From Caldisericia bacterium (GTDB lineage: Bacteria; Caldisericota; Caldisericia; UBA6126): a DNA stretch of 64,000 nucleotides. Below the pieces are notes generated by a model. The model had not been told where the DNA came from, searched no databases, and worked only from the letters and a program-made list of their open reading frames with translations. Positions within the stretch are counted from its first letter, which is position 1. The number at the start of each line of letters is the position of its first letter. The stretch spans positions 5,436-69,435 of the forward strand of contig DAOSES010000005.1 of assembly GCA_035363255.1 (NCBI GenBank). The letters are read 5' to 3'. Positions 1 through 40,847 of this stretch are shown here, in pieces. Position numbers and translations under genes: made by a program.

Positions 1-572
1 ATAGTCGAGATTATGCAGACAAGTCAAAACCCAGCATCTTCATTACCGAGATCAGCTCCTCGGGTCCCAGCATGAGCTTCAAAATCGATTTAGTTTATGA
101 AGAGCCCTGGCTGGAAGTTAATCCATCAAAACTCAGCTTTGGAGAAATCGAAAAAGGCAAAAAACTTGCTCGTTCATTTCAACTCCAAAACAAGGGCACA
201 AGCACCCTGCGATCCGAAATCACCACTGATTACAATTGGATCAAGCTTTCTGAATCCCTGGTTTTTGGAAATGAAGCGGAGCTTCAGGTCACAGTGGACA
301 CTTCCAACATGACCCTTGGTTTCAACCAGGGTACCATTGATATCAACTCCAATGGAGGCAAACGTAAAGTCAGCATTGAAGTTGAAGTAATTCGAAAATA
401 TGGCGATCTCAATGGAGACAACAAGGTGGACGACCAGGATTGGGCCGTTTTTCGAAGAGCTTATGGCAGCCGAAAGGGAGATCCAAACTACCAGACATCT
501 GCCGATTTTAATAAAGATGAACTCATTAATCTTTTGGATTTACATATTTTTTCCGGGAATTATGTTCCCTGA
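1..572 (+). CDS. 3'-end of a secreted protein gene (5'-truncated by the window edge) ending in a dockerin-like Ca-binding module
   Basis: The frame of ORF 72..572 is open back to nt 3 with no stop, so the gene very likely begins upstream of the window. The C-terminus has two dockerin-type 12-residue loop segments (DLNGDNKVDDQD..., ADFNKDELINLLDL...), each followed by a hydrophobic helix. Confidence 0.6.
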   Translation, partial: SRDYADKSKPSIFITEISSSGPSMSFKIDLVYEEPWLEVNPSKLSFGEIEKGKKLARSFQLQNKGTSTLRSEITTDYNWIKLSESLVFGNEAELQVTVDTSNMTLGFNQGTIDINSNGGKRKVSIEVEVIRKYGDLNGDNKVDDQDWAVFRRAYGSRKGDPNYQTSADFNKDELINLLDLHIFSGNYVP

Positions 573-639
573 ACAAGCTGAACCTCGACTGCTTTTTTCT
601 GTGCTATCTCTGATTTTTTAGATAGTCATCCAAATCCCC

Positions 640-1206
640 ATGACCTCCCTTCATCGATCGCAGGAAACAAAGCTCATCCAAAGGTGTAAAAAGGGTGATG
701 CTGAAGCCATGACGATCATCTATGAGTCCTTTAGCGAAGAGCTCCTACGCTCTGCTATTCTATTGTGTAAAAACTTGGACGATGCACAGGATATGGTGTC
801 CCAGGCTTTTATCTTATTCTTTAAATCGATCGATCGGTTTAATACCGACTACCCCCTTCGACCCTGGTTGCATCGAATATTGAAAAATGAAGCTATGACT
901 CTTTTTCAGAAACGAAGTCGAGGATTTGCATCCGAAGAAGATATAAAAATAAATTTAAATAGTTCTGAACCAAATGGGGAGGAAGAAGTATTTACTGCAG
1001 AGGAGACTAGATATTTAAAGGAGGCAATGGAGCAATTGAAGGAAGAAGAACGGTGGATACTTCAGGCATATTATTTTCAGGAATTGAGCATCAAAGATCT
1101 TGCCATAAGTCTTGAAATACCTGAAGGAACAGTAAAAAGCAGGTTATTTAATGCCCGTGCTTCTTTAGCCAAAAAAATACAAGCTCTAATGCAAAAACAA
1201 CTATGA
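640..1206 (+). CDS. ECF-family RNA polymerase sigma factor (sigma-70 regions 2 and 4)
   Basis: 188 aa. Region 2-like segment (DAQDMVSQAFILFFKSIDRFN...RPWLHRILKNEAM). C-terminal region 4 HTH (LSIKDLAISLEIPEGTVKSRLFNARASLAKK). Its stop overlaps the next start (ATGA). Confidence 0.85.
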   Translation: MTSLHRSQETKLIQRCKKGDAEAMTIIYESFSEELLRSAILLCKNLDDAQDMVSQAFILFFKSIDRFNTDYPLRPWLHRILKNEAMTLFQKRSRGFASEEDIKINLNSSEPNGEEEVFTAEETRYLKEAMEQLKEEERWILQAYYFQELSIKDLAISLEIPEGTVKSRLFNARASLAKKIQALMQKQL

Positions 1207-3524
1207 AAAACCACGACAAACTTTGCCATAAACTGCAAGAAACTCTTCTATTGCATGGCAAGCAGTCCTTATCTCCTCGCTTGTCTCAGCATCTACTCTC
1301 TTGCAGAGAATGTCAGGAATTCTTGCAAGGCGAAGAACTTCTACAAGCTTTTAAAACTGAGCTTAAGACTCGATCTCTCAAGCTTGATCCCGCCCATGAT
1401 TTTGAGGTTCGCAATACAATCGTAGCCACTGCTCTACGTTTGCAAAATACCAAATCCAGCCATGTATGGTGGAAAAAACCAGCGATATCATTAGTGTCTT
1501 TTGTTTTGCTTCTTGGTCTGTTTTGGGGCACTTGGCCCATACTGAGCAATTACCCTATATGGGACTATCAAGTGCAAGAAAAAATCACACAGCTTTTGAA
1601 CGATGAAACCTTGAGTGTAGCATCCCCAGAAGCTGATAGAGCTGTTTCCATGCGAGCTGTTGATGCAGAAAAGGACACAGATCAATTGTTAAGATTTGCT
1701 AGCTGGGCTCTTCCAGGCGCTGAAAGTCAAAAAGCATTTTGGACTTCCGATCAAGAGATGGCGCAACGTTTTTATTGGATATGGATTCGCTTTCTTTCCG
1801 AAAAAAGTCAGCAATCCTACCTCAAAGTCCAGCAATTGCTTGATACTCATGGCGACACTAAAGCAGTGCGAATGCTCAAATTACCCCTACGCAAAACAGT
1901 TAAGGAATTTGAGAAATACCTCAAACCCTTCCGTCTTGGACCCAAAGATGAAGCCTTCGAGGCAGATGTCTTGGTTTTATCCGTTAATCTTAAACAAGCC
2001 TTGATTCGAGTGGATGCATTAGACGAACCACTGCACCTTGATCCAGTGCTTCTCAATCAGATGTATCCTGGAAAAATGCTTCGACTTACCATCAAGAAAG
2101 AAAATTCTTTATACTATGTGCTTGCGCTTTCTGAGCCTTTGCTTTCTTCCAGTCTTATTGAAGGAGCAATCAGCAGTGTAAACCAACAACAAATTATCAG
2201 TAGTAGTTTTTCCAATCCTCTGGAACTGAATGAAAAAACTTTTTTCAACAATATTAGTCAAGCAGAACTAAAAGCCAACACTGAAGATATTTACTGGTTA
2301 CGAGTCTTGTTTACTGATGATACAGCCCATGTTTTAAGCTTAAACCGACGAGGACATCCCTTCCAACAGACCCTGAGTGGTACTATCGATCGCATGAGTT
2401 CCTACGGTTTTACGCTAAAAGACTACCCTCTACATTTTTATTTTACCTCTCCTCCACTTATTTTTCCCTCCACTTATTCCCTTAACGAAATTGCTAATCG
2501 TAGTTTTTGGATTACGGTGGATGGCATCCAATATGAGGATCAGGTTCGTCTAACAAAGATACAAGTACTTGAAAACCCCCTGGATCCCTTTCCCGATCAA
2601 GACTACCTCCTGGCTTCAGCTAATTCGGAAAAACCCCTTCTTTCCTCTCCTGCTCAAGGTCCTATCGAAAAACGACAGGGTGGTTCATTGAGATCCCCTC
2701 TTGCTTCTTCATCCAAAGAATCAAACAGTTTAAACTTGGATTACATCATAGGGACAACGGGCCACACTCTTCATCTCGCTTCAGGAAAGAATATCACCTA
2801 CAAATCATCTTACCTTGCTCCTGGCTCCAAAATTCAATGGGAAGGATCTGTTTCTGAAATTTTATCCAGCCCAGAGATTGCGCTTGGTCGATGGAAAACC
2901 CTGCAATCTTCGTATCGTTTGATCAACCGATTCGACAATGGAGTTCTTGTGCTACGTTTAAAAGAGGACAGCAAACCCCTCTATATCTATACCTCCGAGA
3001 AGATTCCCGATGAAGGAATTTTGCAGGCAAAAGTCGTAGAACACGAACATCTCCTCATTGCAGTTGAAAGCAGAAGCTTTACTCTTTCTCACGTATTGAG
3101 TGTTCGAGGAACTGTAGTGCAAACCATGAACAAAGAAAGCAGTTTTCTTCTTGATAATGGAACCATGTTTGTGATCGATGAGTTAAGTCAGATTATTCAT
3201 GGTCCCATATGGCACGGAAGCACTGTTGTCGTCAAAGGCACTATGATTGATCAGGTTTTTAAAGCTTTTATTGTTGAAGTGGAAAGTGAAGAGCTTATTT
3301 TTACTGGCTTAATCGTATCTATCGACCACGATCAAGGTCTGATACATCTCGATTCTGGTGCGAGCATCTTCATCAACGACAAGACCGTTTTTTCTTTCCC
3401 CAGATCTTCGCTTAAAGTGGGTTCTGCGGTGCTTATCAGAGCGCGAAGAGAAGCCTCCAGCTTTATTGCTGTAGAGATCCTCGACGCCAAGGACCATGTG
3501 TCGGACAAAGGAGCAAACACATGA
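1203..3524 (+). CDS. anti-sigma factor: zinc-finger anti-sigma domain, one TM helix and a ~650-aa extracytoplasmic domain
   Basis: N-terminal H..(x)..CRECQEF zinc-binding anti-sigma motif, followed by the hydrophobic segment ISLVSFVLLLGLFWGTWPIL. Translationally coupled to the ECF sigma gene by a 4-nt overlap. The rest of the protein has no recognisable family. Confidence 0.65.
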   Translation: MKNHDKLCHKLQETLLLHGKQSLSPRLSQHLLSCRECQEFLQGEELLQAFKTELKTRSLKLDPAHDFEVRNTIVATALRLQNTKSSHVWWKKPAISLVSFVLLLGLFWGTWPILSNYPIWDYQVQEKITQLLNDETLSVASPEADRAVSMRAVDAEKDTDQLLRFASWALPGAESQKAFWTSDQEMAQRFYWIWIRFLSEKSQQSYLKVQQLLDTHGDTKAVRMLKLPLRKTVKEFEKYLKPFRLGPKDEAFEADVLVLSVNLKQALIRVDALDEPLHLDPVLLNQMYPGKMLRLTIKKENSLYYVLALSEPLLSSSLIEGAISSVNQQQIISSSFSNPLELNEKTFFNNISQAELKANTEDIYWLRVLFTDDTAHVLSLNRRGHPFQQTLSGTIDRMSSYGFTLKDYPLHFYFTSPPLIFPSTYSLNEIANRSFWITVDGIQYEDQVRLTKIQVLENPLDPFPDQDYLLASANSEKPLLSSPAQGPIEKRQGGSLRSPLASSSKESNSLNLDYIIGTTGHTLHLASGKNITYKSSYLAPGSKIQWEGSVSEILSSPEIALGRWKTLQSSYRLINRFDNGVLVLRLKEDSKPLYIYTSEKIPDEGILQAKVVEHEHLLIAVESRSFTLSHVLSVRGTVVQTMNKESSFLLDNGTMFVIDELSQIIHGPIWHGSTVVVKGTMIDQVFKAFIVEVESEELIFTGLIVSIDHDQGLIHLDSGASIFINDKTVFSFPRSSLKVGSAVLIRARREASSFIAVEILDAKDHVSDKGANT

Positions 3525-5158
3525 AAAAAATTCAAAGTTTATTTCTTGTGATCGTATTTCTCTTTTCAGCAAACACGATGACGAGAGCCAAACAAGAATC
3601 TCGCCTAAGTGTTTTTATTGAAAAGCCTTTTTTTGGGGAGGCCTCTGCCTTTCGTTTTTTAATGGATTCGTTACCCTTTCAGCTTGAAACAGAAACCATT
3701 ATCATTAGCTTCCCTTCCAACTATCAATTTCAGATCGATATTCAGAGCAAAGATCTCCTCCTGGGTGAAGGCGTAGAATTACTTTCACTTACTCTCTTAA
3801 ATTCCAATAGCCTTGAGTTGAAAGCTGTTTTTAATCCTACCCAAGCACTGGATTTTAAGATCTTGCAAAGTGCAGGTATCACCAATCCATTAGAATGGAA
3901 CAAATCATCTGTTTTTGCTCTACAATTTTTAAACAACAACTTTGTCGTGTTATCATCAGCAGTTCCGCTCCGAGCCCCCAATAACACTATCGTTGTATCT
4001 CCATCAGCACAACCTTCCAAGGGTGAAATCTGGCTCAAGCAGTCTATTGAACTTACCTTGAGCTCAACAACAAGCCCCGAAATCAGATATTCCTTGAATC
4101 AAGGCAAAGAATATGTCTATCACGAATCGCTAAAGCTTTCCGAGGGTGTTCATGAGTTGACTTATTATGGAGTTCGAACAAGCGGAGCCAAAGAAAGCTT
4201 GAAAATAGAAACTTTTTACATTGACATCAGCCCTCCACAGGTGAAAGTGCTTTCGCCCCAAAACAATCATCTTAGCAACAAATCTCAGCTTGAGGTATTG
4301 TTTGAGATTCAAGACCTGTCCCCTACTCGACTAATCATCAATCAAACTGGAGAATACCTGGTACCGAAAGAGGGACGACTTGGTATCAAATACGAGCTAA
4401 AACCTGGGCGCAACACGATAAATTACAAAGTGATTGATTCTGCAAATCATCTGTTCGAATCCACCCTTACCCTTTTTCTTGATGTAACTCCTCCCTATCT
4501 TGTTATTCTTTCCCCTCAACGCGATGAAGTCATATGTACCTCAAAAGTCGATATCACTGGCAAAGCAGAGCTTGACAGTCAGGTATGGATTGGGGATATT
4601 CCCGTCAAACTTGACTCCTATGGCAATTTTTCCCTTCAATGGACCCCAAAAGAGGGCATCAACCAACTCCTGGTGAGAGCTTTGGATAAGGCAGGAAATG
4701 AAAGCAGGCGAGACTTGCAGTTTATGGTGTTTCCAGGGATGGCTATCGAAGCCTGGATCGGTCAAAATCAGGCAAAAGTCAATGGAAAAGATAAAGAAAT
4801 CAATCCCGCTCCCTTCATCGACCGTATGAGCAATGAAGTTTATTTTCCGCTTCGTTTCATTGCCGAAACCTTGTCCTACGAACTCCTTTGGGTGGCTCAG
4901 GGCTCTTATGTTTCCATGAAAAAAAACACTTGGGAAATACGGCTTAGGCCATTAGATCCTTTGGTTCAAATAAGAAACTCAGAACAGGTTGAAGATGTGC
5001 GTTTACAATATGTTCCTACGGTATATCAAGGATCCACCATGATCCCAGCAGAATTTATCAAACGTATCCTTGGGGGTGATGTGATTTTTGATACCACTGC
5101 CAAAAAAACCATCCTTCATTTTTGTGAAAAAACACCTTCTTCAGAAATAAGGAAATGA
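3521..5158 (+). CDS. secreted surface protein: signal peptide, Ig-like domains, two C-terminal Cu_amine_oxidN1-like wall-binding repeats
   Basis: Signal peptide MKKIQSLFLVIVFLFSANTMTRA. Ig-like segments with the ...LVRALDKAGNES... pattern. C-terminus VNGKDKEINPAPFIDRMSNEVYFPLRFIAETLSYEL plus a second degenerate copy. 4-nt overlap with the upstream gene. Confidence 0.7.
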   Translation: MKKIQSLFLVIVFLFSANTMTRAKQESRLSVFIEKPFFGEASAFRFLMDSLPFQLETETIIISFPSNYQFQIDIQSKDLLLGEGVELLSLTLLNSNSLELKAVFNPTQALDFKILQSAGITNPLEWNKSSVFALQFLNNNFVVLSSAVPLRAPNNTIVVSPSAQPSKGEIWLKQSIELTLSSTTSPEIRYSLNQGKEYVYHESLKLSEGVHELTYYGVRTSGAKESLKIETFYIDISPPQVKVLSPQNNHLSNKSQLEVLFEIQDLSPTRLIINQTGEYLVPKEGRLGIKYELKPGRNTINYKVIDSANHLFESTLTLFLDVTPPYLVILSPQRDEVICTSKVDITGKAELDSQVWIGDIPVKLDSYGNFSLQWTPKEGINQLLVRALDKAGNESRRDLQFMVFPGMAIEAWIGQNQAKVNGKDKEINPAPFIDRMSNEVYFPLRFIAETLSYELLWVAQGSYVSMKKNTWEIRLRPLDPLVQIRNSEQVEDVRLQYVPTVYQGSTMIPAEFIKRILGGDVIFDTTAKKTILHFCEKTPSSEIRK

Positions 5159-5166
5159 GGTGTAGC

Positions 5167-8100
5167 ATGAAAAAAGTTCTATCTTTACTGTTACTTGTCA
5201 TCTTGCTGATGGGCACATCACCTGTGAATGCCCAGGAACCTGCAAGAATAGTCATTTCTCCGAATGTTCAATGCCTGCAATTGGGTGAACAAGTCACTCT
5301 TACGGCCCAAGCTTATGATGCAAGTGGAGCATTGATACCAGGGGCTGCTTTTGATTGGTCCTTGCAAGGGCCAGGGAGCTTGTCTTCCAGCAGTGGATCG
5401 ACCGTCACCTATCAAGCCAATCGTGATGGGCAGGTAGTGATAACGGTTCGCTCTGGAACGGTAAGCGCGAGTATTCGTTTTTCTGTGGGCAGTGGAAAAG
5501 TCAGCAATGTCCAGGCTCGAGTCGATCCAGATACTGCTGGTGCAGTGGCTGAATACTACATTTTTTTTGAAACAGATGATTGTGGCATCCTGGAAGCAGG
5601 CGATCAAATATATGTGGCTTTTCCTATAGGCACGATTCTTCCCAATTATTATCATTGTAGTACGGTGACCGTCAACGGAATGATAGCCTCCTATGAGGTA
5701 CGAGAATCCAGCGATCGATCTAAAAGTCCTATTCTTATCATCACCATCCCCAACAATTTTCGTCCTTCTTCATCCATTTATATACGAGTATGCAAAGTAA
5801 TTAATCCCCGTGGTGGCAGTTGTTACGTCCTGGCGGTTGCTACCAGCAGACAAACTCAGTGGGTGCTTTCTTCACCCTATTCCATCCGTGGATCTATCAT
5901 TAGTCCTCCCATGGTGGAAGTTAAGCCTGATATTGCGGGAGAAACAGCTGTTTATAAGATCACTTTTAAAACTTCTAATTCAGGTCGTTTGTCAGGGTGT
6001 TATGGTAGTTTCATTATGGTGGAATTTCCAGTCGGAACCAGGATGCCTCGTGAGATATTACCCGAACACATTATGGTCAACCGGGTGCCAAGCTGTCCTC
6101 ATATCAAACCGGAAATCAATGGACGTACTGTTAAAATTTTCCCTCAGATGGTAGTTATTGAAGACTCCGATGTCGAGATTGAATTTACCCTCGAAGCAGG
6201 CTTTGGCAATCCCGAAAAACCCGACGATTATCAGTTGGCGGTATGGACTTCTTCTGACACCATACGAGTTCTTTCACGTTCGTATAAAATCAGGGCATCT
6301 ACTATCGAAGATTTGCAAGTCGAGGTGGATAAGCCATTTATTCAAACTCCTTCAGCCTATACTATTCGCTTCAAGACAGGACTGGTAGGGCGATTGGGTA
6401 TCGGTGCTTTGATAACCATCTATTTCCCCTCTTCCATGACGATGCCAAGTCCAGTCAGACCAGGAAGTATCAAGATCAATGGGGTTCCCACCATCAAAAA
6501 TCCCATCTTTGACGGAAAAACCATATTGCGTATTCCCACTCCCGTTGAGATCGAAGCACGTAGCCAAGTCGAAATTGTCATCAGTGAAGAGTTTGGTCTC
6601 ATTAATCCTCCCGATCCAAGACGTTATTTTCTTGAAGTGCAGACAGCAAAAGAAGGTACATTGGTTAAATCAAATGAGTTTGTGATTGGTCCAAGCGTGG
6701 TTGGAGAGGTTTCAGTTCGTCTGAGCATGCCCTATATTGGAGTTGCAAGCGCTGTTGAGTTGTCTTTTGTTTCTGGTGGTGGCGGTAAAATGACTGCTGA
6801 GAAAGATAGAATTTTCATTGTTTTCCCCAAAGGCACTCACATCCCCAATGCAATCCAAAAAAGCGCTATCACCATCCAGGGGCAAAGCATACCCGTTACC
6901 CCATTTATAAAGAAAGACATCGGAGAAATCATGCTCCATGTCCCTGTTGACATTCCAGCCCAGAGCAAGGTAGTCGTGCGATTTGAAGAAAGCGCAGGTC
7001 TGCTCAATCCGTCTCAGACAGGTTTTTATCGATATCAAGTGGCTACATCCAGGGAAGTCTCCTACATACAATCCCCTCCCATTGAAATCACAGAATCCAC
7101 TGTGCGTTTTGTCCAAGTAAAAGTACTTCACAATACGATCAAAGAGCTCAGTCGTATGAGTATCTCTTTCCAACTGGGGGATGCTGGAAAGCTCGAGAAG
7201 AACGATCGTATTCGTTGTTTTTTTGATGCAGGATTTGTTTTTCCAGACAGCATAGACAAAGGAATCATATTGAATAGCGTACCATTAGATCCTTCTGATA
7301 TCATAGTGGATGCCTCAAGAGATATGATTGAAATACGCTTGAACGAGGAATACCCTGAAGGTAGTTTGATGAGTCTTGAAATCCAGGAAAGCGCCGGAAT
7401 CAGAAATCCAGCCCAGGCAGGAATGCATCAGATAGGCATTTCAAGTAGCAGTGAAACCCGAACCATAGCTTCTCCCGAATTTCGCATCATTCCCTTACCC
7501 AGCACAGAATATGCTCTGGATCCAATGATCCCTGATGGTCAAAATGAATGGTACATTTCTGAACCAAGCTTGACCCTGAATATAGACACAGAAGACAAAG
7601 AACGAGCTGAAAGCTATGTTTCCATCAATGGATCCGAATGGAGCAAATACACTGAGCCTATATCTTTTGCTTCTGGAGAATACTTGATTGAGTTCTACAG
7701 TCAACATAGCGATTCTGCAAAAGAACAAAAACAGAGCATTTCGATCAAAGTGGACACCAAAGCTCCCATTATTCAGCTTAGCGAAAAAACCGTCTATACC
7801 AATAAAGGCAATTACAAGCTTTCTCTTGCCATTATCGAGTCCTGGTTTGATTATGCAATGGTAGGAGAGCAGAGAATCGATTCCCTGATTGAAGGTAGAT
7901 TGATTGCAAATGTATCTCTTCAGGAAGGTGAAAACAAGCTCATCATACTAGTGTATGATCTTGCGGGACATCGGAGTGAAGAGCATCTAACCCTGGTATT
8001 GGACACCCAGGCTCCCAAGCTTGAAATCTCACAACCTCTACCCTGGTCGAAATCGATTCGAAGCAGAATCTGGATAAGTGGAACCACGGATCCCGATGCT

Positions 8101-8643
8101 GAAATTTTCTGTAATGACAAACCCTTGCGACACATCGAGGGTAGCTTCGAAGGTTTTATTCCTCTTCTTCCTGGCCTGAACGCTTTAAATTTTCTTGCCG
8201 TGGATCGTGCAGGAAATGAAAAAAAATATACTCTTCCCGTCCAGTATGCTGAAAAATTCCAAGCTGAGATTTTTATCGACAAAACCAAAGCTCAAAGCAG
8301 TTTTGGGGAAATTCATTTTGATGCTCCGCCCTTTATTGAAAAGTCATATACCATGGTTCCTCTGAGAGTTTTTGCTGAACTTTTAGGCTATCAGATTGAA
8401 TTTGAGCCAGTTTTTCAAATCATCACCATGAGTGAGTTTGGAGGAAAAACTATTCGTGCCCAGGTAGGCAACACCATTTTTACAGTGAACGATCAAAAGA
8501 AAACCTTAGCTGTTGCTCCTATGATTCGCAATGGCAGAACCTTTGTACCTTTGCGTTTCTTTGCGGAAGAATTTGGTTTTGAAGTATCTTATCGAAAGGA
8601 AAGTCACAGCGTATTATTAACATACCATGAACCTACTGAGTAG
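5167..8643 (+). CDS. large secreted surface protein (~1158 aa): Big_2 domain, ~5 copies of the ~135-aa KNP module, conserved C-terminal cassette with 2x Cu_amine_oxidN1
   Basis: Probable start at ATG 5167 (MKKVLSLLLLVILLMGTSPVNA signal peptide); the ORF track begins at 5155. Big_2-like segment IVISPNVQCLQLGEQVTLTAQAYDASG.... Module ends VINPRGGSCYVL, FGNPEKPDDYQL, LINPPDPRRYFL, LLNPSQTGFYRY, IRNPAQAGMHQI. C-terminus has WYISEP...KVDTKAPII, an Ig-like domain and two FVPLRFFAEEFG-type repeats. Confidence 0.8.
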   Translation: MKKVLSLLLLVILLMGTSPVNAQEPARIVISPNVQCLQLGEQVTLTAQAYDASGALIPGAAFDWSLQGPGSLSSSSGSTVTYQANRDGQVVITVRSGTVSASIRFSVGSGKVSNVQARVDPDTAGAVAEYYIFFETDDCGILEAGDQIYVAFPIGTILPNYYHCSTVTVNGMIASYEVRESSDRSKSPILIITIPNNFRPSSSIYIRVCKVINPRGGSCYVLAVATSRQTQWVLSSPYSIRGSIISPPMVEVKPDIAGETAVYKITFKTSNSGRLSGCYGSFIMVEFPVGTRMPREILPEHIMVNRVPSCPHIKPEINGRTVKIFPQMVVIEDSDVEIEFTLEAGFGNPEKPDDYQLAVWTSSDTIRVLSRSYKIRASTIEDLQVEVDKPFIQTPSAYTIRFKTGLVGRLGIGALITIYFPSSMTMPSPVRPGSIKINGVPTIKNPIFDGKTILRIPTPVEIEARSQVEIVISEEFGLINPPDPRRYFLEVQTAKEGTLVKSNEFVIGPSVVGEVSVRLSMPYIGVASAVELSFVSGGGGKMTAEKDRIFIVFPKGTHIPNAIQKSAITIQGQSIPVTPFIKKDIGEIMLHVPVDIPAQSKVVVRFEESAGLLNPSQTGFYRYQVATSREVSYIQSPPIEITESTVRFVQVKVLHNTIKELSRMSISFQLGDAGKLEKNDRIRCFFDAGFVFPDSIDKGIILNSVPLDPSDIIVDASRDMIEIRLNEEYPEGSLMSLEIQESAGIRNPAQAGMHQIGISSSSETRTIASPEFRIIPLPSTEYALDPMIPDGQNEWYISEPSLTLNIDTEDKERAESYVSINGSEWSKYTEPISFASGEYLIEFYSQHSDSAKEQKQSISIKVDTKAPIIQLSEKTVYTNKGNYKLSLAIIESWFDYAMVGEQRIDSLIEGRLIANVSLQEGENKLIILVYDLAGHRSEEHLTLVLDTQAPKLEISQPLPWSKSIRSRIWISGTTDPDAEIFCNDKPLRHIEGSFEGFIPLLPGLNALNFLAVDRAGNEKKYTLPVQYAEKFQAEIFIDKTKAQSSFGEIHFDAPPFIEKSYTMVPLRVFAELLGYQIEFEPVFQIITMSEFGGKTIRAQVGNTIFTVNDQKKTLAVAPMIRNGRTFVPLRFFAEEFGFEVSYRKESHSVLLTYHEPTE

Positions 8644-10027: not shown

Positions 10028-10127
10028 ACTGTCTTAGAATCTTCATTTAAAACAGCTATTTTCTCAAGCTTTATTTAAAACTTATTAATCAATTTTGATT
10101 ATTTTTTAAAAAAACTGTATTTTATTC

Positions 10128-10156
10128 TTGACAAATAAGAATACTATTTGTAAAGT
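10128..10156 (+). promoter_or_regulatory. candidate sigma-70 promoter for the DUF4143 ATPase gene (possibly near-leaderless transcript)
   Basis: TTGACA (10128-10133), 17-nt spacer, TAAAGT (10151-10156). ATG at 10163 is only 6 nt downstream. Confidence 0.4.
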
Positions 10157-10162
10157 CAAGGT

Positions 10163-11338: not shown

Positions 11339-11459
11339 ATGAACCAAGCGATGAACCTGCTAAAAAAAGGATGGTATTTAGTTTATGATGAATAAAAAAA
11401 ATAACGACTATATTACAAAGTTTATGGATAATCGATTTTTAATGCAAAGGAGAAATATA

Positions 11460-22190: not shown

Positions 22191-22243
22191 AAAATGATGT
22201 ATACAAGGGCATCTTTCCTTTGCAAGCATAAAGGAGGACTCAG

Positions 22244-25200
22244 ATGAAGTTAAAAAAATGGTTTAGTTTGTTCTTAAGCTTGGTGTTGCTCTATTCCTGG
22301 ATACCATTGGGCAGGGCAGCCATCAGCAATCTGATCAATACCCCCACTCCCAACACAGCGGGTTCGAACGCTTCTCAACGAATCCGATTCATTAATGCAG
22401 TCACGATACCCGTGGGTGGTCGCGTTGAAGTCACCTTTCCTCAACAGTTTGATCTGAGTAGTGGAGGAGACTGGATTCCAGCGGATATCGTTTTAAACTT
22501 TCAAGGAGGGCCAGCAGTTACGGTCAGTGATGTGATACGTAATGGTCAAAAAATCTCCTTTGGCATTGGTGGAGCTGCTTCAGGAGTTGGATTTCAGGAG
22601 TTCACCCTCAATGCGCTGAGGATTATTAATCCCCCTACCCCCGGAACTTACACCGTATCTCTCACCACTCTTGGCATCACTGGAACCCAACTGGAAGGTA
22701 CAGCCACCTCTGCTTCATTTGAAATTATACAGGATATGAGTGCCGCTTCGGTCACGGTGGAACCCGATATTGCAGGGGCTAATGCCAAGATGACCATCCA
22801 ATTTCGTCTTGGAACTGGAACTTCTCGTAGTCTATATACGGGAGATCGTATCCGTGTTGCTTTTGATGCCAATGTGGTGGATTTGACCAAAGTTACCACC
22901 GTCCCCGGCACCATCCAACGATCGTTCCTAAAAGTAAATCAATCAGCAGTTACTACTGACCCCACCATCACTCCTGGTGAGCCTGGGGTGAGTCGGGGTA
23001 TTGTGGAAGTGATCATTCCCCAAAATATCACCTCCAGCGCTACCCAGGGTGCTGCTGTAACGATTACTTTCGAAACAGGCGCAGGCATTCTCAATCCAAA
23101 CGATGCTCCCTGGACTCGACGAGTGGAAGTTACCACCCTGCGAAGTAATGGCATCACCATTATCGAAGGTCCTGTGGCCTCAAATTTCTATGCCATTCGC
23201 ACCACCGTTGCTGCTCCCAAGGTGTTTGTCAGACCTGAAATAGTTGGTATGAACGCTGAATATCATTTATCCATGAAGCTTGGAGCTAACAGCAGTTTAC
23301 TCAAAAACTCTGGAAGGATTGATGTAATTTTCCCAGAAGGCACGCAAATGCCAGCTTCTATCCCAGCTTCTGCCATTCGCATCAACACTGCAGTAGCAGA
23401 ACCTGCCTTTCCCTGCGATGGACCCGATTCCCCTCCTTTTGAGCCTTTGGTTTCGGGACATAAGGTCTCTTTTGTGATGCCAGTGGATGCAGTAGCAAAC
23501 AATTTTATTTGTATTGTTTTCAAGGCTTCCAGCGGAATAAAAAATCCCACAAGTCCTAGAGTATATCACCTACAGATTTCTACTTCCTCGGATCCCTCCA
23601 TAATATCTTCTCAAAGTTATTCCATTCGTCTTTCAGGAAGAGCCCAAGTTACTCCAGACCCTGCGAAATCCTCCGAAAGAGCTCAATATACTATCCAATT
23701 CCAGACTGGAGTCGATGGAGCCCTATATCCCTTTGGCACTGCTGGAACCAACAAAAATATTATGATTACATATCCTGCTGGTTTTATACTTCCTGCAGGA
23801 ATTGCAGCTGGCTTGATAACAGTCAATGGAGTTGCTACCACTGAAGCTGCAGTTATTGCAGCCCAGGTGATTACTTTTCCAGTTCCCCAGGTGATCGAAA
23901 ATAACTCCTCCGTCACCATAATCATTAAAAAAGATGCTGGAATCATCAATCGAAAGATTGCGGAGTCTCCTGAATATCATAGTCTTGTGATAGAAACTGA
24001 CAAAGAAAAAGGTCCCAACAAGATTATTTCTGACCAATTTATGTTGTATTCACCCATTACCGAAGTCTATGTGGTTCCTGGTGATCTTGGGGTTGGAGTG
24101 GTTAGTCGATATGAAGTCAGTTTTAAAATTGGTGATGTGGTAGAGGGTTTGAAACCCAATGACCGTATCAGCATTGAATTTCCCGCTGGCACTACCTTAC
24201 CCTCTTTTATCTCCACAGGAAATGTTCGACTTCAGAACGATGCAGGAGTTTCTCCTTCTTCTTTAATTATTGCTGGAAACACTATTCACTTGACTCTTCC
24301 AGCTACCTTTGTGCCTGTTCCTCCTCCTCCTGGCATCAACAATGTAAAAGTAATCTTTTTCCAAAGCTCGGGCATACGAAATCCCGAAAATCCAGGTTCT
24401 TATCGAGCCACGGTATATACTTCACGCGAAAATACTCCAGTTTTATCTGAGTTTTATACGATTGGTACTGTTTCGGGTCAAGTTCAAGTAACTGTTGACC
24501 CCAACAAAACGGGCTATTGCACTACCAGTGCTGAGGGTGCTCATTACACCGTCCAATTTACCACGGGTCAAACAGGTGGCGTTTCTTCCGGACAGCGTAT
24601 TATGCTGGTATTTTCTCCTGAATATGGTCCCATTTTTACCGTCAACCATCCCCTGAATCTTATTCCAGCAGGCACCATTCTTGTTAATGGCATACCTACC
24701 CAAATCAACACCACCATCGACAATGCTCCCACCCCTCAACATCCTCTTGGGTCCAAAATGCTCTCCATTATTTCTCCCGTCAGCATCAGTTCTCAAAGTG
24801 TAGTAAAAATTGATTTGCTTTCTTCTGCAAACATTGATAATCCTCCAGTGTCTATCACCCCCCAACCTTTCTTCTTACGTGTTTTTACAGATAGTGAACC
24901 CAGTGTTATCTCTGGATTGTACTACCTGATCTCAACCATTCGAGGCATTGGGGCTGGCTGTCACGATCCTCTCGGAGTGGAGTTGACCAATCAACTCACC
25001 CGCATGGGAACTGATATCAAGATATCTTTGCGTACAGGTATAGTAGGTGCTCTCAATTCTGGCTCAGACAGGCTCCGAGTGAAATTTCCAGCCGAAACTC
25101 ATATTCCCAGCTTTATTTCTGGCCAATACATTCGAATCAACACTGTGGACAATTTTGCAACCAGTGTAAGCGTTTTGAATCCCAGTATTTCTGACAAAAC

Positions 25201-28200
25201 CGTAGCTTTCGAAATTCCATATGGGCTTACCATCGGAAATAACGCTACCGTATTTATCTATTTCCAACAGGGTGGAGGCATTGTTAATCCTTCTGTTCCT
25301 GGAAACTATCAACTTTTTGTATCCAGCACCAAAGAACCAACAGAAGTTGCTTCTCTTCATTATACTATCGAAGGAATCAGCATTTCACGTCCTACCGTAG
25401 CTCCTCTTCCTACGCTGGCTGGAGCAGAAAAAACCCAATATACTATAAAATTCATGACTGGTGCTTATGGGAGTTTGAATATTGGTGATACCATCAATTT
25501 TGAATTTCCTGCTGGAACCGATATCGATCCAACACCTCCCAGAAATCCTCTAAATCCAAGAACAATCTCTGCACAACATGTTTTGGTCAATGGAGTTCCT
25601 TGTATTATTGCACCCACCGTCATTAGTGCCACGCAGGTGATGATATATAGTCCAGTGGTCGTGCCTTCCAATTCGCGAGTCACCATTCTTTTCACCAAAG
25701 ATGCCAAAATCAAAAACCCTATCGCTGCAGGAGATCTTTATACCCTCAGAATGTGGACTATGAGAGAAGGTAGCTCAAGCAATCCCTTAGTATCGGATGC
25801 ATATGAGATTTCTTCAGCTACTAAAATCACGAAACCCGTAGTTACGGTAAGTCCCTGCACCCCCTACAGCCCCTCTCGTTATGTGCTCGAGTTTTATACT
25901 CCCACCGCTATGACAGCCAATGTCGATGCTTTTGACATCGATTTCCCTTCCGGAACCTTTATCCCTTCCAGCATGGATGCTTCCAAAATATTGTTCAGCA
26001 CTCAAGACAATCAAAACGTATCCTGTCAAATTAATCCTGTGATAGCTGCCTATCGAATCACCCTCACCACCCCTATCAATGTCAATGCCAATAGCTACGT
26101 TAAAATCGATTTACTACGTGATGCCGGTCTGCAAAATCCAGTCGCAGGTAACTACAATTTACAAATTGCTACCGTTGGAGCTATCCCTCCCAATCAGAAT
26201 GAATCCTATGCTTATTACATCTGCCCGGATCTTGATTTTGGACGCTTGGAAATTACACCTTCCAGTATGCGTCTTCCTGTAGGCAAAACTCAAATTTTTG
26301 TAGCCAGAGCTTATGACACCCAGGGTCAACTCATGGATTATGGTGTGACTTATCGCTGGAATCTTTCCTCAAATATTGGTATGTTAGAAAACAATCATAC
26401 CCAGACCACCGAATTTTATGCTCGCAACATGGGTTCAGCCAATTTATCAATGGTAGCAGAGTATGGCAATCGATCCATCTCCACCAGTGTTAGCGTGGTA
26501 GTCACAGGGCCAATGACTCGAATTCAATTGACACCCTCGGGCATTACCACCTCCAAGGGCTTGAAAACTCGTTTTACGGTTCAGGCTTTTGATGCCAACA
26601 ACGAAGCTGCTGAAGGAGTTCTTTACCAGTGGACGGTAAGCCCAGAGCTTGGTGTGATCACACCTGTCCCTCTAAGCGACGAAGTTGAATTCCACGCAGA
26701 TACCGAAGGGCAATGCGTGATACGGGTAAGGGGAACACAGGGCGGTTTGGTCCAAGAAGCTGAAGCTCAGGTGACAATCAAAGTAGGTGTCAATAATCTA
26801 GTGATCATGCCCTCCCAGCTTGGCAGCAACCCTCAACCCGGAGAAATTCTTGGACCCTTCACAGTTGAGCTCCAAAATCCTTTGAATCAAACTATCCCTG
26901 CATTTACTGAAACTCCCATCACTCTATCCTCCACTACTCCCCATGGTAGATTCTCTCTTGATGGTATCAACTGGACAAGCTCCAATCAACTTCATACCTC
27001 CATTATGACCAACTTTGACAAGACTCAGCCCTTCTACTTGTGTGTCTTGGAAGCAGGAGATTGTACTATTGTTGCCTCTTCTGATGACTACAACTCCTTC
27101 TTGATGCCATTATCTGTTCGCGGACACAAAAAAGGGATGGTCTTTTTATCTCCTCCGCAAAACCTGCGTAGAAACGTTATATCTGAAAAAATCAGCATCC
27201 AGATCCAAGATATTCTTGGTCAACCCTATGCAGTCAATAAAGACACGATGATACAGCTTAACTCCTCTTCTCCCCAGGGTCAATTTTCCAAGACCATGGA
27301 TCCATGGATACCCCTCGAAAGATTCCTGCTTTCTCCAAGCCAGCACACCCTGGAATTGTATTATCGTGACTCTCGGGAAGGCACCCTGTCCATCACAGCA
27401 AGCAATCCAATCTTTGGCAGTGTTTCGCAGATATTCAATGTTGCTTCTCCTGGCGCTGTCAGTGCTCCAGAAGTTGTAGTCAAACCTGCTGTTTCTGGTT
27501 TATCCGCCAGCTATCAGATATCTTTCCATGTCGGTTTTGATGGTGCTCTGGAAGCTTCTCGAGACTTCATCGAAGTGGTGTTTCCAGAAGGCACTCGTCT
27601 TCCCCAAAGCATCCCAGCCTCAATGATAACCATCAATTCACAGAGTTTGATACAAACTCCAGTCATCAACACTTCTTTGCGAAGTATTCGCATGATAGTT
27701 CCCAGCTCCATATCCTCTACTGAACGGGTGGACTTGGTGATTCCTTCCATTACCAATCCTGAGCGTACTGGAAAATATACCCTAAAAGTAGCTACCAGTG
27801 TCCAAGCTACCTATTCCGATTCCCAGCCATACACCATCGATTATTCCACGATTTCTGATTTGAGCTGTGAAGCTGTGCCTTCTATTGCTGGATCGATAGC
27901 AGAACAGCGAATCAACTTCAAAACAGGATTAAAAGGAGCCTTGGAAGCGGAGCAGGACATCACACTCATCTTTGATTTTGCCTACGAACTCCCTGCGGTG
28001 ATCAGCTCTGCACATGTTCTATTTAATGGAATTCCCCTACCTTTTGACCCCAGTGTCAGTGGCAAGGCAATTGTCATTAAAGCTCCTCGATCCATATCAG
28101 CTGAAACTCTTGTCAATATTGTATTTAGCAAGGAATGCGGGATTAAAAATCCCCTCTATCCTGGCACTTACCATATCCAGGGCTTCACCTCCGCAGAACA

Positions 28201-29845
28201 GGCTATGATCAAATCTTCTCCTATTGAGATTGTGCAACACTCCTTGATCCGAGATTTGGTGATCAAACCTCAGCCTGCGATGATATCCAAGGGGGCTGAA
28301 TATACGATTACCTTCAACACAGGACCATATGGAGCGCTAACTCAACAGGATTTTATCACTTTAAGCATGCCGGATTTAATGATGCCTCTCAACCTACCTC
28401 CTTCTTCGGTAGCTATCAACAATATACGAATTCAGCAAGCTATTGCTGTCCAAAACAATACGATTCAACTCCCTGTTCCAGCTTTTATCCCTGCGAGTGA
28501 AAAAATCACCGTTGTAATTTATCGTCAAGCAGGCATCATCAATCCTGCCAAATCCGCCAATGATTATCGCATTATGGCTCATACCAGCAAAGAGCCCTAT
28601 CCAGTGTCTTCCGCCCCATTCACTATCGAGCCTCAACTTGAAATCACCCACATGATCAACCCTCCAAATCCAGATGGAGCCAACAATTGGTATATCAACG
28701 AACCTATCATTATCTTTACTTCCAATGTTCAAGCTCGTATCTATTATAGAATTGACCAGGGCGCTGAAAGAGAGTATCTTGAGCCTATTCGACTAAGCGA
28801 ACACGGTCAACATACCATCTATTATCGTGGCACCTCTCTTCTGGGTAATGAATCCGAAGTCAAGTCCTTTACTTTCCAATACGATGGCACAGCACCAATC
28901 ATCGAAACCAATATTGGAGAAGATATTTCCTATACTCGAGAACAACGCATGGCTTTTAGTATCCTTATCAAAGACATTTCTCGCGTGACCATCACCCTTA
29001 ACGACCAAGCTATTCAACTCATCAACAATAGTTATTCAACTATTCTTGACCTTAAGACAGGTGAAAACAATTTTGTGATCAGGGCTATGGATGAAGCAGG
29101 TAATGTTTCCACTCTCCATAAAAAAATCATTTTCAAGTCTCAGCCTCCCATGCTCTTGATCACCTCTCCCACTTCCTTCCAAATGATACAGGACATCTAT
29201 TTTGCCACAACCAGCGCTGGTTCAGAGCTATTTGCGAATGTACGAATCAAAGGGTCCACCGAGATAGGAGTAGAAGGTTTGGAACTCATTTCTGACACCT
29301 TCAAGGGCTTCTCATTAACTATTCCTGTGGATTCCCTGGGTAATTTTGATCGAGTCGTGGGTATTCGCAGTATGGCAGGAGACAATGTTTTAACCATCAA
29401 AGCAGTGGATAAGGTGGGAAATGAAACTCGAGTCATGATCAGCTACATTCTGCGTATTACTGTTCGTCTGCGCATTGGAGTTGAAACAGGTTATGTCAAC
29501 GGAACTCCGGTCCAATTAGGCAGTAAACCTTACCTGAAATACAACAAACATACCATGGTTCCCTTCCGTTTGATTGCTGAGTCACTTGGTGCAACGGTAG
29601 GTTGGGAGCAGGCTACGCGAAAAGTTTCTTATGATTTCCGCGGAGTTCATATTGATTTATGGATAGGAAGCAAAACTGCTGAAGTGACCGATCAAAATGG
29701 CAGAAGGAGAACAGTGACCCTCTTAGCTGAGCCTGAGTTACTTAGTGGACGTACCTGGGTACCTTTGCGTTTTGTTTCCGAAGCTCTGGGTGCTAAAGTA
29801 GATTGGGACGCTAAACTTTGGGAAGCAATCGTCTCCTATCCTTAG
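22244..29845 (+). CDS. giant secreted surface protein (2533 aa): ~12 KNP modules, 2 Big_2 domains, C-terminal cassette with 2x Cu_amine_oxidN1
   Basis: RBS GGAGG before ATG 22244. Signal peptide MKLKKWFSLFLSLVLLYSWIPLGRAA. Module ends IINPPTPGTYTV, IKNPTSPRVYHL, IRNPENPGSYRA, IVNPSVPGNYQL, IKNPLYPGTYHI and others. Big_2 pair (LEITPSSMRLPVGKTQIF..., IQLTPSGITTSKGLKTRF...). WYINEP...YDGTAPIIE. C-terminal HTMVPFRLIAESLG and TWVPLRFVSEALG repeats. Confidence 0.85.
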   Translation: MKLKKWFSLFLSLVLLYSWIPLGRAAISNLINTPTPNTAGSNASQRIRFINAVTIPVGGRVEVTFPQQFDLSSGGDWIPADIVLNFQGGPAVTVSDVIRNGQKISFGIGGAASGVGFQEFTLNALRIINPPTPGTYTVSLTTLGITGTQLEGTATSASFEIIQDMSAASVTVEPDIAGANAKMTIQFRLGTGTSRSLYTGDRIRVAFDANVVDLTKVTTVPGTIQRSFLKVNQSAVTTDPTITPGEPGVSRGIVEVIIPQNITSSATQGAAVTITFETGAGILNPNDAPWTRRVEVTTLRSNGITIIEGPVASNFYAIRTTVAAPKVFVRPEIVGMNAEYHLSMKLGANSSLLKNSGRIDVIFPEGTQMPASIPASAIRINTAVAEPAFPCDGPDSPPFEPLVSGHKVSFVMPVDAVANNFICIVFKASSGIKNPTSPRVYHLQISTSSDPSIISSQSYSIRLSGRAQVTPDPAKSSERAQYTIQFQTGVDGALYPFGTAGTNKNIMITYPAGFILPAGIAAGLITVNGVATTEAAVIAAQVITFPVPQVIENNSSVTIIIKKDAGIINRKIAESPEYHSLVIETDKEKGPNKIISDQFMLYSPITEVYVVPGDLGVGVVSRYEVSFKIGDVVEGLKPNDRISIEFPAGTTLPSFISTGNVRLQNDAGVSPSSLIIAGNTIHLTLPATFVPVPPPPGINNVKVIFFQSSGIRNPENPGSYRATVYTSRENTPVLSEFYTIGTVSGQVQVTVDPNKTGYCTTSAEGAHYTVQFTTGQTGGVSSGQRIMLVFSPEYGPIFTVNHPLNLIPAGTILVNGIPTQINTTIDNAPTPQHPLGSKMLSIISPVSISSQSVVKIDLLSSANIDNPPVSITPQPFFLRVFTDSEPSVISGLYYLISTIRGIGAGCHDPLGVELTNQLTRMGTDIKISLRTGIVGALNSGSDRLRVKFPAETHIPSFISGQYIRINTVDNFATSVSVLNPSISDKTVAFEIPYGLTIGNNATVFIYFQQGGGIVNPSVPGNYQLFVSSTKEPTEVASLHYTIEGISISRPTVAPLPTLAGAEKTQYTIKFMTGAYGSLNIGDTINFEFPAGTDIDPTPPRNPLNPRTISAQHVLVNGVPCIIAPTVISATQVMIYSPVVVPSNSRVTILFTKDAKIKNPIAAGDLYTLRMWTMREGSSSNPLVSDAYEISSATKITKPVVTVSPCTPYSPSRYVLEFYTPTAMTANVDAFDIDFPSGTFIPSSMDASKILFSTQDNQNVSCQINPVIAAYRITLTTPINVNANSYVKIDLLRDAGLQNPVAGNYNLQIATVGAIPPNQNESYAYYICPDLDFGRLEITPSSMRLPVGKTQIFVARAYDTQGQLMDYGVTYRWNLSSNIGMLENNHTQTTEFYARNMGSANLSMVAEYGNRSISTSVSVVVTGPMTRIQLTPSGITTSKGLKTRFTVQAFDANNEAAEGVLYQWTVSPELGVITPVPLSDEVEFHADTEGQCVIRVRGTQGGLVQEAEAQVTIKVGVNNLVIMPSQLGSNPQPGEILGPFTVELQNPLNQTIPAFTETPITLSSTTPHGRFSLDGINWTSSNQLHTSIMTNFDKTQPFYLCVLEAGDCTIVASSDDYNSFLMPLSVRGHKKGMVFLSPPQNLRRNVISEKISIQIQDILGQPYAVNKDTMIQLNSSSPQGQFSKTMDPWIPLERFLLSPSQHTLELYYRDSREGTLSITASNPIFGSVSQIFNVASPGAVSAPEVVVKPAVSGLSASYQISFHVGFDGALEASRDFIEVVFPEGTRLPQSIPASMITINSQSLIQTPVINTSLRSIRMIVPSSISSTERVDLVIPSITNPERTGKYTLKVATSVQATYSDSQPYTIDYSTISDLSCEAVPSIAGSIAEQRINFKTGLKGALEAEQDITLIFDFAYELPAVISSAHVLFNGIPLPFDPSVSGKAIVIKAPRSISAETLVNIVFSKECGIKNPLYPGTYHIQGFTSAEQAMIKSSPIEIVQHSLIRDLVIKPQPAMISKGAEYTITFNTGPYGALTQQDFITLSMPDLMMPLNLPPSSVAINNIRIQQAIAVQNNTIQLPVPAFIPASEKITVVIYRQAGIINPAKSANDYRIMAHTSKEPYPVSSAPFTIEPQLEITHMINPPNPDGANNWYINEPIIIFTSNVQARIYYRIDQGAEREYLEPIRLSEHGQHTIYYRGTSLLGNESEVKSFTFQYDGTAPIIETNIGEDISYTREQRMAFSILIKDISRVTITLNDQAIQLINNSYSTILDLKTGENNFVIRAMDEAGNVSTLHKKIIFKSQPPMLLITSPTSFQMIQDIYFATTSAGSELFANVRIKGSTEIGVEGLELISDTFKGFSLTIPVDSLGNFDRVVGIRSMAGDNVLTIKAVDKVGNETRVMISYILRITVRLRIGVETGYVNGTPVQLGSKPYLKYNKHTMVPFRLIAESLGATVGWEQATRKVSYDFRGVHIDLWIGSKTAEVTDQNGRRRTVTLLAEPELLSGRTWVPLRFVSEALGAKVDWDAKLWEAIVSYP

Positions 29846-29877
29846 AGTAAAAAAGCATATCCGCCCAAATTTTACTA

Positions 29878-29912
29878 CCGGGTTACCTTTAAAAGTAACC
29901 CGGTTTTTTTTA
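29878..29912 (+). terminator. rho-independent terminator downstream of the surface-protein operon
   Basis: Perfect 9-bp stem CCGGGTTAC / GTAACCCGG with an 8-nt loop, followed by T9. Located 33 nt after the stop at 29845. Confidence 0.8.
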
Positions 29913-30424: not shown

Positions 30425-30443
30425 AGAAAGCGGAACCATTTCC

Positions 30444-30893: not shown

Positions 30894-30906
30894 GAGTGTA
30901 AAAAAA

Positions 30907-31938: not shown

Positions 31939-31978
31939 CGAGGCTTATGGGATGGATGTAAAGGGAGGTTAAGGATAT

Positions 31979-36368: not shown

Positions 36369-36376
36369 GTTTTTTT

Positions 36377-40755: not shown

Positions 40756-40762
40756 TTTAACC

Positions 40763-40836: not shown

Positions 40837-40847
40837 ATGACATATGA

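Follow-up and report, generated by a model that had tools for sequence, protein, structure and literature searches.

Candidate proteins of the Caldisericota cell surface are addressed here through a 64-kb stretch of DNA from a Caldisericia bacterium (GenBank assembly GCA_035363255.1, contig DAOSES010000005.1, positions 5,436–69,435), hereafter the window. Positions 1–29,912 of its plus strand carry nine genes, numbered g1–g9 along the locus, which include an extracytoplasmic function (ECF) sigma/anti-sigma pair, four secreted paralogues of up to 3576 amino acids (aa) and a family 2 glycosyltransferase (GT2). With a probability of roughly 0.55, we interpret this locus as a lineage-specific, chromosomally fixed and regulated surface-coat or surface-fibre system of Caldisericia. 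A first-pass annotation of the DNA had proposed a surface-layer (S-layer) or fibre apparatus induced by an envelope signal. The sigma/anti-sigma pair, the paralogous secreted proteins and a promoter motif conserved in relatives sustained that proposal; its one-operon form and the inclusion of an ATPase in the apparatus did not stand.

Organization of the locus

The open reading frame (ORF) scan of the window gave nine ORFs within 1–29,912, all co-directional on the plus strand. The genes g2–g6, which encode the sigma factor, the anti-sigma factor, two secreted proteins and the GT2, are translationally coupled through overlaps of 4 nucleotides (nt) between g2 and g3, g3 and g4, and g4 and g5 (the last becoming an 8-nt gap if g5 starts at position 5167) and of 17 nt between g5 and g6. 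The two giant genes g8 and g9 form a separate unit closed by a strong intrinsic terminator (29877–29912, plus strand), with a hairpin at 29877–29904 that has a 10-bp stem including six GC pairs, an 8-nt loop and a T8 tail. The nine same-strand genes, their small overlaps and the closing terminator agreed with the first-pass annotation, as did the types of gene listed. The order was revised, since the GT2 (g6) and the ATPase (g7) lie between the second and third secreted proteins (g5 and g8), and the single operon initially envisaged was replaced by what are probably at least three transcription units: g2–g6, possibly with g1; g7 with its own promoter; and g8–g9.

Secreted proteins and their modules

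The genes g4 (3521–5158, 545 aa), g5 (5167–8643, 1158 aa, or 1162 aa from an alternative start at 5155), g8 (11460–22190, 3576 aa) and g9 (22244–29845, 2533 aa), all on the plus strand, encode proteins that mutual comparison identified as paralogues. A Sec-type signal was read from the sequence at the N terminus of each, where a K/R-rich n-region leads into a hydrophobic core and an A-x-A-type site. The g8 ORF opens at 11385 (3601 aa); its start was moved to 11460 because a Shine–Dalgarno (SD) sequence AAGGAG and an ATG (MRKGISL...) are conserved there in the orthologues, and 11460 is very probably the true start, giving 3576 aa.

An iterated hidden Markov model (HMM) detected copies of a module of ~135 aa in all four proteins: one weak copy in g4, five in g5, 21 in g8 and 12 in g9. 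In g4 the single module precedes a C-terminal cassette shared by the four proteins, and g5 consists of a Big-like N-terminal domain, its five modules and the cassette. In g8 and g9 the modules begin immediately after the signal peptide. The chain of g8 runs through 16 modules arranged in ~272-aa di-module units (DNA period of 819 nt), two Big_2/Invasin_D3-like domains, a poly-proline linker, five further modules, two of which are divergent and BslA/DUF2808-like, and a cassette with a doubled stalk domain. That of g9, delineated with the module HMM, Pfam and the cassette alignment, comprises nine modules, two Big_2-like and two further beta domains, three modules and the cassette. The tandem modules expected of the giants were thus found (21 and 12 copies); the Big_2/Invasin_D3-like pairs, expected just before the cassette, lie mid-chain instead (aa 2326–2530 in g8 and 1330–1530 in g9). 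The repeat copies are only 25–30% identical in protein and at most 84% identical in DNA over short stretches, and therefore repeat collapse during assembly, raised initially as a possible flaw of the giant ORFs, is of no concern and was rejected.

Over their last 380–400 aa, g4, g5, g8 and g9 can be aligned in register. Three small beta domains of the Glucodextran_B/OmpL47-barrel type make up the first part of this cassette, and two half-repeats ending in G-R-T-x-V-P-x-R-F (Cu_amine_oxidN1) follow. Pfam placed Glucodextran_B and Cu_amine_oxidN1 at the C terminus of four of the four secreted proteins (for g4, 3.8e-11 and 2.9e-16, respectively), and the g9 cassette matched the OmpL47-type barrel domain NF047446 (1.1e-16). 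Pfam and the in-register alignment bear out the first-pass view of four secreted proteins with one common C-terminal cassette, each ending in two Cu_amine_oxidN1-like repeats.

A PDB sequence search with the g8 di-module, the anti-sigma factor, g5, the AAA protein and a profile of 25 modules returned nothing usable. With the module profile, sub-threshold DUF2808 matches were obtained in 7 of the 25 modules, and BslA was matched at an E value of 2.5e-6 (27.9 bits, below the cut-off of 38.7). The fold obtained for the module was a YweA/BslA-like immunoglobulin (Ig) fold. The AlphaFold2 model of g5 consists of all-beta beads, and Foldseek comparison of the whole model with PDB yielded only generic tandem-Ig proteins (HYDIN, alpha-2-macroglobulin, complement and GhpA), which do not discriminate between families. 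The ~135-aa unit is thus an undescribed Ig-like module, possibly a distant relative of BslA/DUF2808. BslA and YweA of Bacillus subtilis (PDB 5MKD) are small single-domain proteins, whereas a single chain of this locus, predicted to be wall-tethered, has up to 21 copies of the fold, and the module sequences score below the Pfam cut-off.

The C-terminal tail

Attachment to the wall through Cu_amine_oxidN1 (PF07833), which the first-pass annotation treated as established knowledge, is a prediction in the literature (PMC4137172; bioRxiv 10.64898/2026.09.23.753664). Fusions of PF07833 to a range of unrelated extracytoplasmic proteins were observed (solute-binding proteins, amidase_3, CAP, cyclophilin, caspase-type peptidases and fn3 arrays), and the whole cassette can be present at as many as five different loci in one Caldisericota genome. 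Bacteroidota and candidate division KSB1 also have proteins with the same ~135-aa module, which was matched there at E values per module down to 1e-27 to 1e-36; these chains of ~1610 aa and ten modules end in a type IX secretion system (T9SS) sorting domain. In those proteins FlgD_ig and the T9SS domain replace the stalk cassette, and their hosts are diderm; therefore the C terminus is the part that changes with envelope type, as a lineage-specific sorting or anchoring device. The fusion pattern of PF07833, the multi-locus cassette and the exchange of T9SS tails on the module fit a retention role for the tail. PF18962 or PF13860 were present only on the distant homologues (P0011–P0034); the proteins of the window, which end in stalk repeats, have no T9SS C-terminal sorting domain, and their secreted members gave no SLH or CWB2 match in Pfam or NCBIfam.

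Conservation in Caldisericota

All ORFs of the fetched loci (numbered L001 onwards) were screened with the proteins of the window, and the neighbourhoods were inspected directly. The order sigma factor, anti-sigma factor, g4-type protein, g5-type protein, GT2, AAA_14/DUF4143 ATPase and giant protein was found in L004, L005, L006, L008, L009, L011, L012, L014, L003/L007 and L015, either complete or over the portion present on the contig. The syntenic loci represent about eight species-level genomes of Caldisericia, in which the arrangement of ECF factor, anti-sigma factor, GT2 and giant protein on which the first-pass annotation had built is conserved. The g5 proteins of the closest species representatives were 78% (L010) and 65% (L012) identical to that of the window. 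In the distant syntenic genomes the g5 orthologue was 46–48% identical and the anti-sigma factor was matched at E values of 1e-55 to 1e-66. Orthologues of g4, the adjacency of g6 to the g5 orthologue and the position of g7 between the GT2 and the giant gene were kept in all related loci, and in L002 an inserted Peptidase_S8 gene follows the GT2. An anti-sigma homologue sits in the same context in every sigma-bearing locus examined (L004–L006, L008, L009, L011, L012 and L014).

Upstream chromosomal neighbours are also alike in the relatives (L28, an MGMT-type protein and a GAF protein), and the G+C comparison did not distinguish the locus from the remainder of the window. A horizontally acquired island was rejected on these grounds, and the word island is a descriptive term only.

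Homologues of the module and of full-length g5 came almost exclusively from metagenome-assembled genomes of Caldisericota, under the NCBI name 'stalk domain-containing protein'. The host itself belongs to Caldisericota, and the comparison with Clostridia made at first was abandoned. Neither a characterised homologue of the system nor a paper on it was found in literature and database searches, in line with the initial view that this is no textbook system; the literature likewise yielded no characterisation of a Caldisericota S-layer or envelope.

The g5 family (~1050–1160 aa, five modules) occurs in many Caldisericota genomes. In the distant order Caldisericales (L018–L026 and L085), the g5-type protein (~1055 aa, ~28% identity) again has exactly five modules followed by the cassette, and is encoded by a lone gene with no adjoining sigma gene. 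Extended -10 sigma-70 promoters (TGGTATAAT) lie ~200 nt upstream of it, and its long leader contains stable hairpins and a perfect SD sequence, AAGGAGGT; in L085 the gene is flanked by two SIMPL genes. This layout, as read from the sequence, is typical of that expected for a very highly expressed structural (S-layer-like) gene.

The sigma/anti-sigma pair and the candidate promoter

The product of g2 (640–1206, plus strand, 188 aa) is an ECF-type sigma factor that contains regions 2 and 4 only, with matches to Sigma70_r2 (4e-9), Sigma70_r4_2 (1.5e-13) and TIGR02937 sigma70-ECF (3e-24; 85.5 bits vs. a cut-off of 42.9). The product of g3 (1203–3524, plus strand, 773 aa) is a membrane anti-sigma factor with an N-terminal zinc-type anti-sigma (ZAS) domain, a single transmembrane (TM) helix at aa 95–113 and an outside region of ~660 aa, in which a helical segment (aa 119–243) is followed by beta barrels resembling the oligonucleotide/oligosaccharide-binding (OB) fold. 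In an alignment of 15 homologues, C8, H30, C34 and C37 were invariant, corresponding to the HxxxCxxC signature of ZAS domains; the Pfam zf-HC2 model did not match g3 at E ≤ 0.01. The sigma models, the invariant ZAS ligands, the TM helix and the 4-nt overlap together substantiate the ECF sigma/anti-sigma pair recognised initially. The g3 protein matched no family in Pfam, NCBIfam, PADLOC or PDB sequences, and an exhaustive HMMER scan of 1.84 billion representative proteins recovered only 18 clusters, nearly all of 730–780 aa. The outside domain is an OB-fold barrel array without described relatives.

The SigW–RsiW pair of B. subtilis is an example of an ECF/ZAS envelope-stress module, with the SigW consensus TGAAAC-N16-CGTA. 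Target promoters of ECF factors have a GAAC-like -35 and a CGT-like -10 element and are usually present before the sigma gene as well. The pair described here is like such modules in its sigma factor with regions 2 and 4 only, its co-translated single-pass anti-sigma factor with HxxxCxxC, and a candidate target promoter, TGAACC-N16-(C/G)GTAT, similar to the SigW consensus. It differs in the ~660-aa OB-fold-barrel outside domain of g3, which has no described relative, and in its presumed regulon, which would consist of giant surface proteins and not of detoxification or wall-repair genes.

The candidate ECF-type promoter of the g8–g9 unit, identified by motif scan and orthologue alignment, lies in the spacer between g7 and g8 (11352–11378, plus strand) and reads TGAACC-N16-GGTATT (also written TGAACC-N16-GTATT). 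The pattern TGAACCN{15,17}SGTAT had one match in the window vs. 0.12 expected, and 12 of 100 shuffles contained at least one match; the count in the window is by itself weak evidence. In the 86 loci (1.35 Mb) the pattern matched 12 times, ten of them at the orthologous spot before a g8 orthologue; one further match precedes a pair of genes for a secreted 355-aa and a 1875-aa cassette protein in L033, which belongs to the same genome as L012. With the variant TGAAC[CG], the motif was present at 11 of the 11 g8 orthologues, 43–82 nt before an ATG that follows an SD sequence and begins the coding sequence of the signal peptide M(R/K)KGI...LSQF. In the alignment of the g8-upstream regions (A4), TGAAC was invariant and its flanks had diverged. 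The motif before g8 has the form of an ECF promoter, as judged from its sequence, and plausibly links the sigma factor to the giant genes.

In L006, L009 and L011 the sigma gene is preceded by a variant, TGAACC-N16-CTATT. Another copy, TGAACC-N16-GTATT, lies within the sigma ORF of the window (966–992, plus strand), and L004, L005 and L012 share it. This copy might drive the anti-sigma gene and those after it from inside the sigma gene, or its conservation may simply be that of coding sequence; because of its position within a coding sequence it was given no weight.

Glycosyltransferase and ATPase

The gene g6 (8627–10027, plus strand) encodes a membrane-embedded GT2 (Glyco_trans_2_3, 1.1e-15; Glyco_tranf_2_3, 1e-11) with the motifs ARDE (D71), YDAES (D184), TED (276–278) and QQRLRW (313–319) and with TM segments at 6–24, 349–367 and 422–451, one N-terminal and the rest C-terminal. 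The motifs and the flanking TM segments support the processive type initially assigned. Scores were far under every equivalog cut-off of the named synthase families (BcsA, PgaC, NodC etc.), with partial matches to PgaC_IcaA (1e-11; 44.5 bits vs. a cut-off of 422) and CelA (3e-9; 35.5 bits vs. 699), and the best PDB match was BcsA at an E value of 0.002. Like the processive GT2s BcsA, PgaC/IcaA, NodC and hyaluronan synthase, g6 has the D, D, TED and Q(Q/R)xRW motifs in a TM-flanked catalytic domain; it differs from them in lacking a PilZ domain and partner subunits and in being translationally coupled to a surface-protein gene. Just upstream of the sigma gene, L006, L008, L009 and L011 carry a divergently oriented gene (minus strand, ~4700–6200) for another GT2 paralogue, of 474 aa and with 32% identity to g6; the main GT2 of this clade has an insertion of ~125 aa in its catalytic domain.

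The gene g7 (10163–11338, plus strand) encodes a cytoplasmic AAA_14 ATPase (3.4e-26) with a DUF4143 region (3e-15) of the PD-(D/E)xK type and a winged helix-turn-helix-like stretch. Residues 3–355 matched the PADLOC candidate PDC-S01 at 1.3e-51. The PDC-S01 family consists of single genes for an ATPase joined to a PD-(D/E)xK domain; it is very common, and as a defence system it is an unvalidated candidate (PMC12988326). A 135-nt AT-rich gap separates g7 from g6 and contains a candidate sigma-70-like promoter, TTGACA-17-TAAAGT (10128–10156, plus strand), proposed from its match to 10 of 12 consensus positions. Because of this promoter of its own, synteny is the only tie between g7 and the surface apparatus. 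The DUF4143 ATPase named in the first-pass annotation is present, and its place in the apparatus was withdrawn; g7, from a ubiquitous family, is most likely an unrelated passenger and not part of the surface system.

The first gene and its dockerin-like tail

The window holds only the 3' part of g1 (1–572, plus strand; ORF at 72–572, with the frame open to base 3 at the window edge), which encodes the C terminus of an M6-like protease; this protein has an Ig domain of the BACON/HYDIN type and a tail resembling a type I dockerin. The full gene encodes 554 aa and was recovered from L001 (282–1946; JGI metagenome contig Ga0116195_1000078), which is identical to the window. Pfam matches to Peptidase_M6 (1.4e-8), BACON_2 and Dockerin_1 (7e-8) indicate a putative secreted M6 (InhA-like) metalloprotease. 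The dockerin tail ascribed to the first gene at the outset thus stands, on a protein that the window edge truncates and whose full form is this 554-aa M6-like protease. The gene lies upstream of the sigma gene in the closest clade only (L004 and L005) and not in L006–L014, and it is probably outside the core of the locus.

In an unrelated Caldisericaceae locus (L027, 7426–12884), two large secreted proteins of 1048 and 765 aa are encoded beside three genes for cassette proteins. Both have a dockerin-like C-terminal tail with 51% identity to that of g1 over 65 aa, and sequence similarity of this kind suggests that the tail may be a recurrent tag in Caldisericota.

Proposed mechanism and alternative explanations

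From this anatomy, its conservation and the motif before g8, we infer a scheme of signalling, anchoring and polymer synthesis for the preferred surface-coat or surface-fibre system. The ZAS domain of the anti-sigma factor would retain the sigma factor at the membrane, and the ~660-aa array of OB-fold barrels outside would sense a glycan or the condition of the wall or coat. Release of the sigma factor would turn on g8–g9. The proteins g4, g5, g8 and g9 would be exported via Sec and be retained on the cell wall by their common ~390-aa tail of glucodextranase-B/OmpL47-type domains and Cu_amine_oxidN1 stalk, with the 5, 12 or 21 YweA/BslA-like Ig modules projecting outward as rods of growing length. 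The co-translated processive GT2 may make a beta-linked polymer, to which the tail would bind or in which the rods would be embedded as in a matrix.

A close general parallel is with the fibrillar adhesins and giant Ig-repeat proteins of monoderms (Monzon et al., PMC8286594, PMC9210967), which likewise combine a Sec signal, a tandem Ig-like stalk (here of 5, 12 and 21 modules) and a C-terminal surface-retention region (predicted here), and also form paralogues with fast-changing repeat number. The proteins of the locus differ from them in having no recognised adhesive tip, in ending with a ~390-aa cassette closed by Cu_amine_oxidN1 in place of an LPXTG, SLH, CWB2 or LysM anchor, and in the repeat itself, an undescribed ~135-aa module with sub-threshold DUF2808/BslA matches only.

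Several observations weigh against the preferred interpretation. No adhesive tip domain was recognised with Pfam or NCBIfam. The g8 orthologue occupies two to four ORFs in L002 (10001–20769), L003 (7988–18843) and L004 (17178–19309), and in L002 and L003 it is split such that the first ORF is a module array without the tail and the last bears the anchor; because of this split, either a single chain of 3576 aa is not a conserved requirement or these two assemblies carry frameshifts. Wall binding by the shared tail is itself predicted by analogy, from a role of PF07833 that the literature also only predicts. Before the sigma gene, the window's own clade has no clean copy of the motif: TGAACC occurs at position 579 with a poor -10 element, and L004 and L005 have no TGAACC there. 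Sigma autoregulation through the motif is therefore not evident in this clade. The connection of the sigma factor with the motif draws on adjacency and the shape of the consensus, and the expression, localisation and binding proposed for the system are deduced from the genes.

A structural role was considered the strongest of the alternatives, although an unlikely one. The five-module g5 family would then form a regular S-layer or an 'outer membrane-like' sheath, with g4, g8 and g9 as accessory lattice proteins or spacers and not inducible fibres or adhesins. The length of the g5-type protein, its five modules and its cassette are constant across the phylum at ~28% identity, the promoter of the lone Caldisericales gene is of a strong extended -10 type, its leader is rich in hairpins and its SD sequence is perfect, and tandem-Ig S-layer proteins (e.g., of Nitrosopumilus) were among the fold matches. 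Those matches are, however, generic for tandem Ig arrays, the 80 loci kept contained no full-length g5-type gene for the genus Caldisericum, and proteins of 2533–3576 aa under an ECF-type promoter resemble inducible fibres more than a constitutive lattice. We regard it as improbable that the genes form no functional unit and that the ECF pair, the GT2 and the defence-type ATPase are unrelated chance neighbours of fast-duplicating surface paralogues. That g7 belongs to a ubiquitous stand-alone family with its own promoter, that the co-directional run continues on both sides and that further paralogues occur elsewhere, e.g., at position 61245 of the window, would agree with a chance arrangement. 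It is countered by the 4–17-nt overlaps that couple the sigma factor, anti-sigma factor, g4, g5 and GT2, by the order kept where g5 is 46–48% identical and the anti-sigma factor matches at 1e-55 to 1e-66, by an anti-sigma family of only 18 clusters found in this context in every sigma-bearing locus examined, and by the ECF-type motif conserved before g8.

Cellulosome-like docking, in which the giant proteins would be scaffolds whose modules bind the dockerin-like tails of g1 and similar enzymes, is very unlikely. The Dockerin_1 match on g1 and the g1-like tails of the two L027 proteins that adjoin cassette-protein genes speak for it. No protein of the locus had a Cohesin match in Pfam, however, even at E values up to 1 on the non-module segments; the module profile has no PDB sequence relative, and YweA/BslA, YcnI and other Ig folds scored above cohesin. 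A cohesin or scaffoldin identity of the modules was rejected on the missing Cohesin match and the fold ranking, and with no cohesin modules found the scaffoldin-like organisation suggested by the first-pass annotation was discarded. The locus furthermore contains no carbohydrate-active enzymes, with or without a dockerin, and no glycoside hydrolase by Pfam; its sole dockerin protein is the M6-type protease (Pfam), and g1 is missing from the locus in most related genomes.

Flanking regions

The co-directional run of genes extends beyond the locus on both sides, downstream into a nusA-infB-rbfA-truB block. A rimP/nusA/infB/rbfA/truB-like block follows right after the terminator, in a housekeeping context within 30381–37333 and 40762–50130, with ftsH, hpt and tilS on the minus strand. 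The Rfam scan of the window detected three tRNAs and nothing else: a tRNA-Met gene (40762–40837) and two neighbouring tRNA-Pro genes (49957–50130).

A secreted ORF of at least 918 aa with a Sec signal starts at 61245 on the plus strand and runs past the end of the window at 64000. It contains one partial module of the locus type (aa 34–122, E value of 2.6e-12) and acidic 'DxDxNG / SxGD' repeats in common with the 1875-aa cassette protein of L033. The sequence TGAACC-N16-CTATT is present at 61075–61101, ~145 nt before the likely start of this ORF.

Implications for the Caldisericota envelope

Processive GT2s, ECF switches and giant surface proteins with Ig repeats are each familiar taken singly. 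The novelty lies in the host phylum and in the module family, cassette and OB-array sensor. The locus reveals no new principle and is most likely not a new class of machine. Its main appeal is its bearing on the composition of the Caldisericota outer layer; in this phylum, which has one cultured species, an outer-membrane-like layer was seen and BamA is reported to be absent (PMC4104836). A speculative and rather doubtful proposal is that the g5-type protein and its giant paralogues build this 'outer membrane-like' envelope as a coat of YweA/BslA-like modules, predicted to be wall-tethered, embedded in the GT2 product and monitored by the OB-array anti-sigma factor.

The locus supplies surface candidates for Caldisericota in the form of a five-module protein family, a tail resembling a retention tag, a giant-protein operon with a candidate ECF-type promoter and a sensor without described relatives. 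It also shows that monoderm-type and diderm bacteria combine one Ig-like module family with C-terminal sorting devices that differ, which aids the annotation of giant 'hypothetical' proteins in metagenomes.

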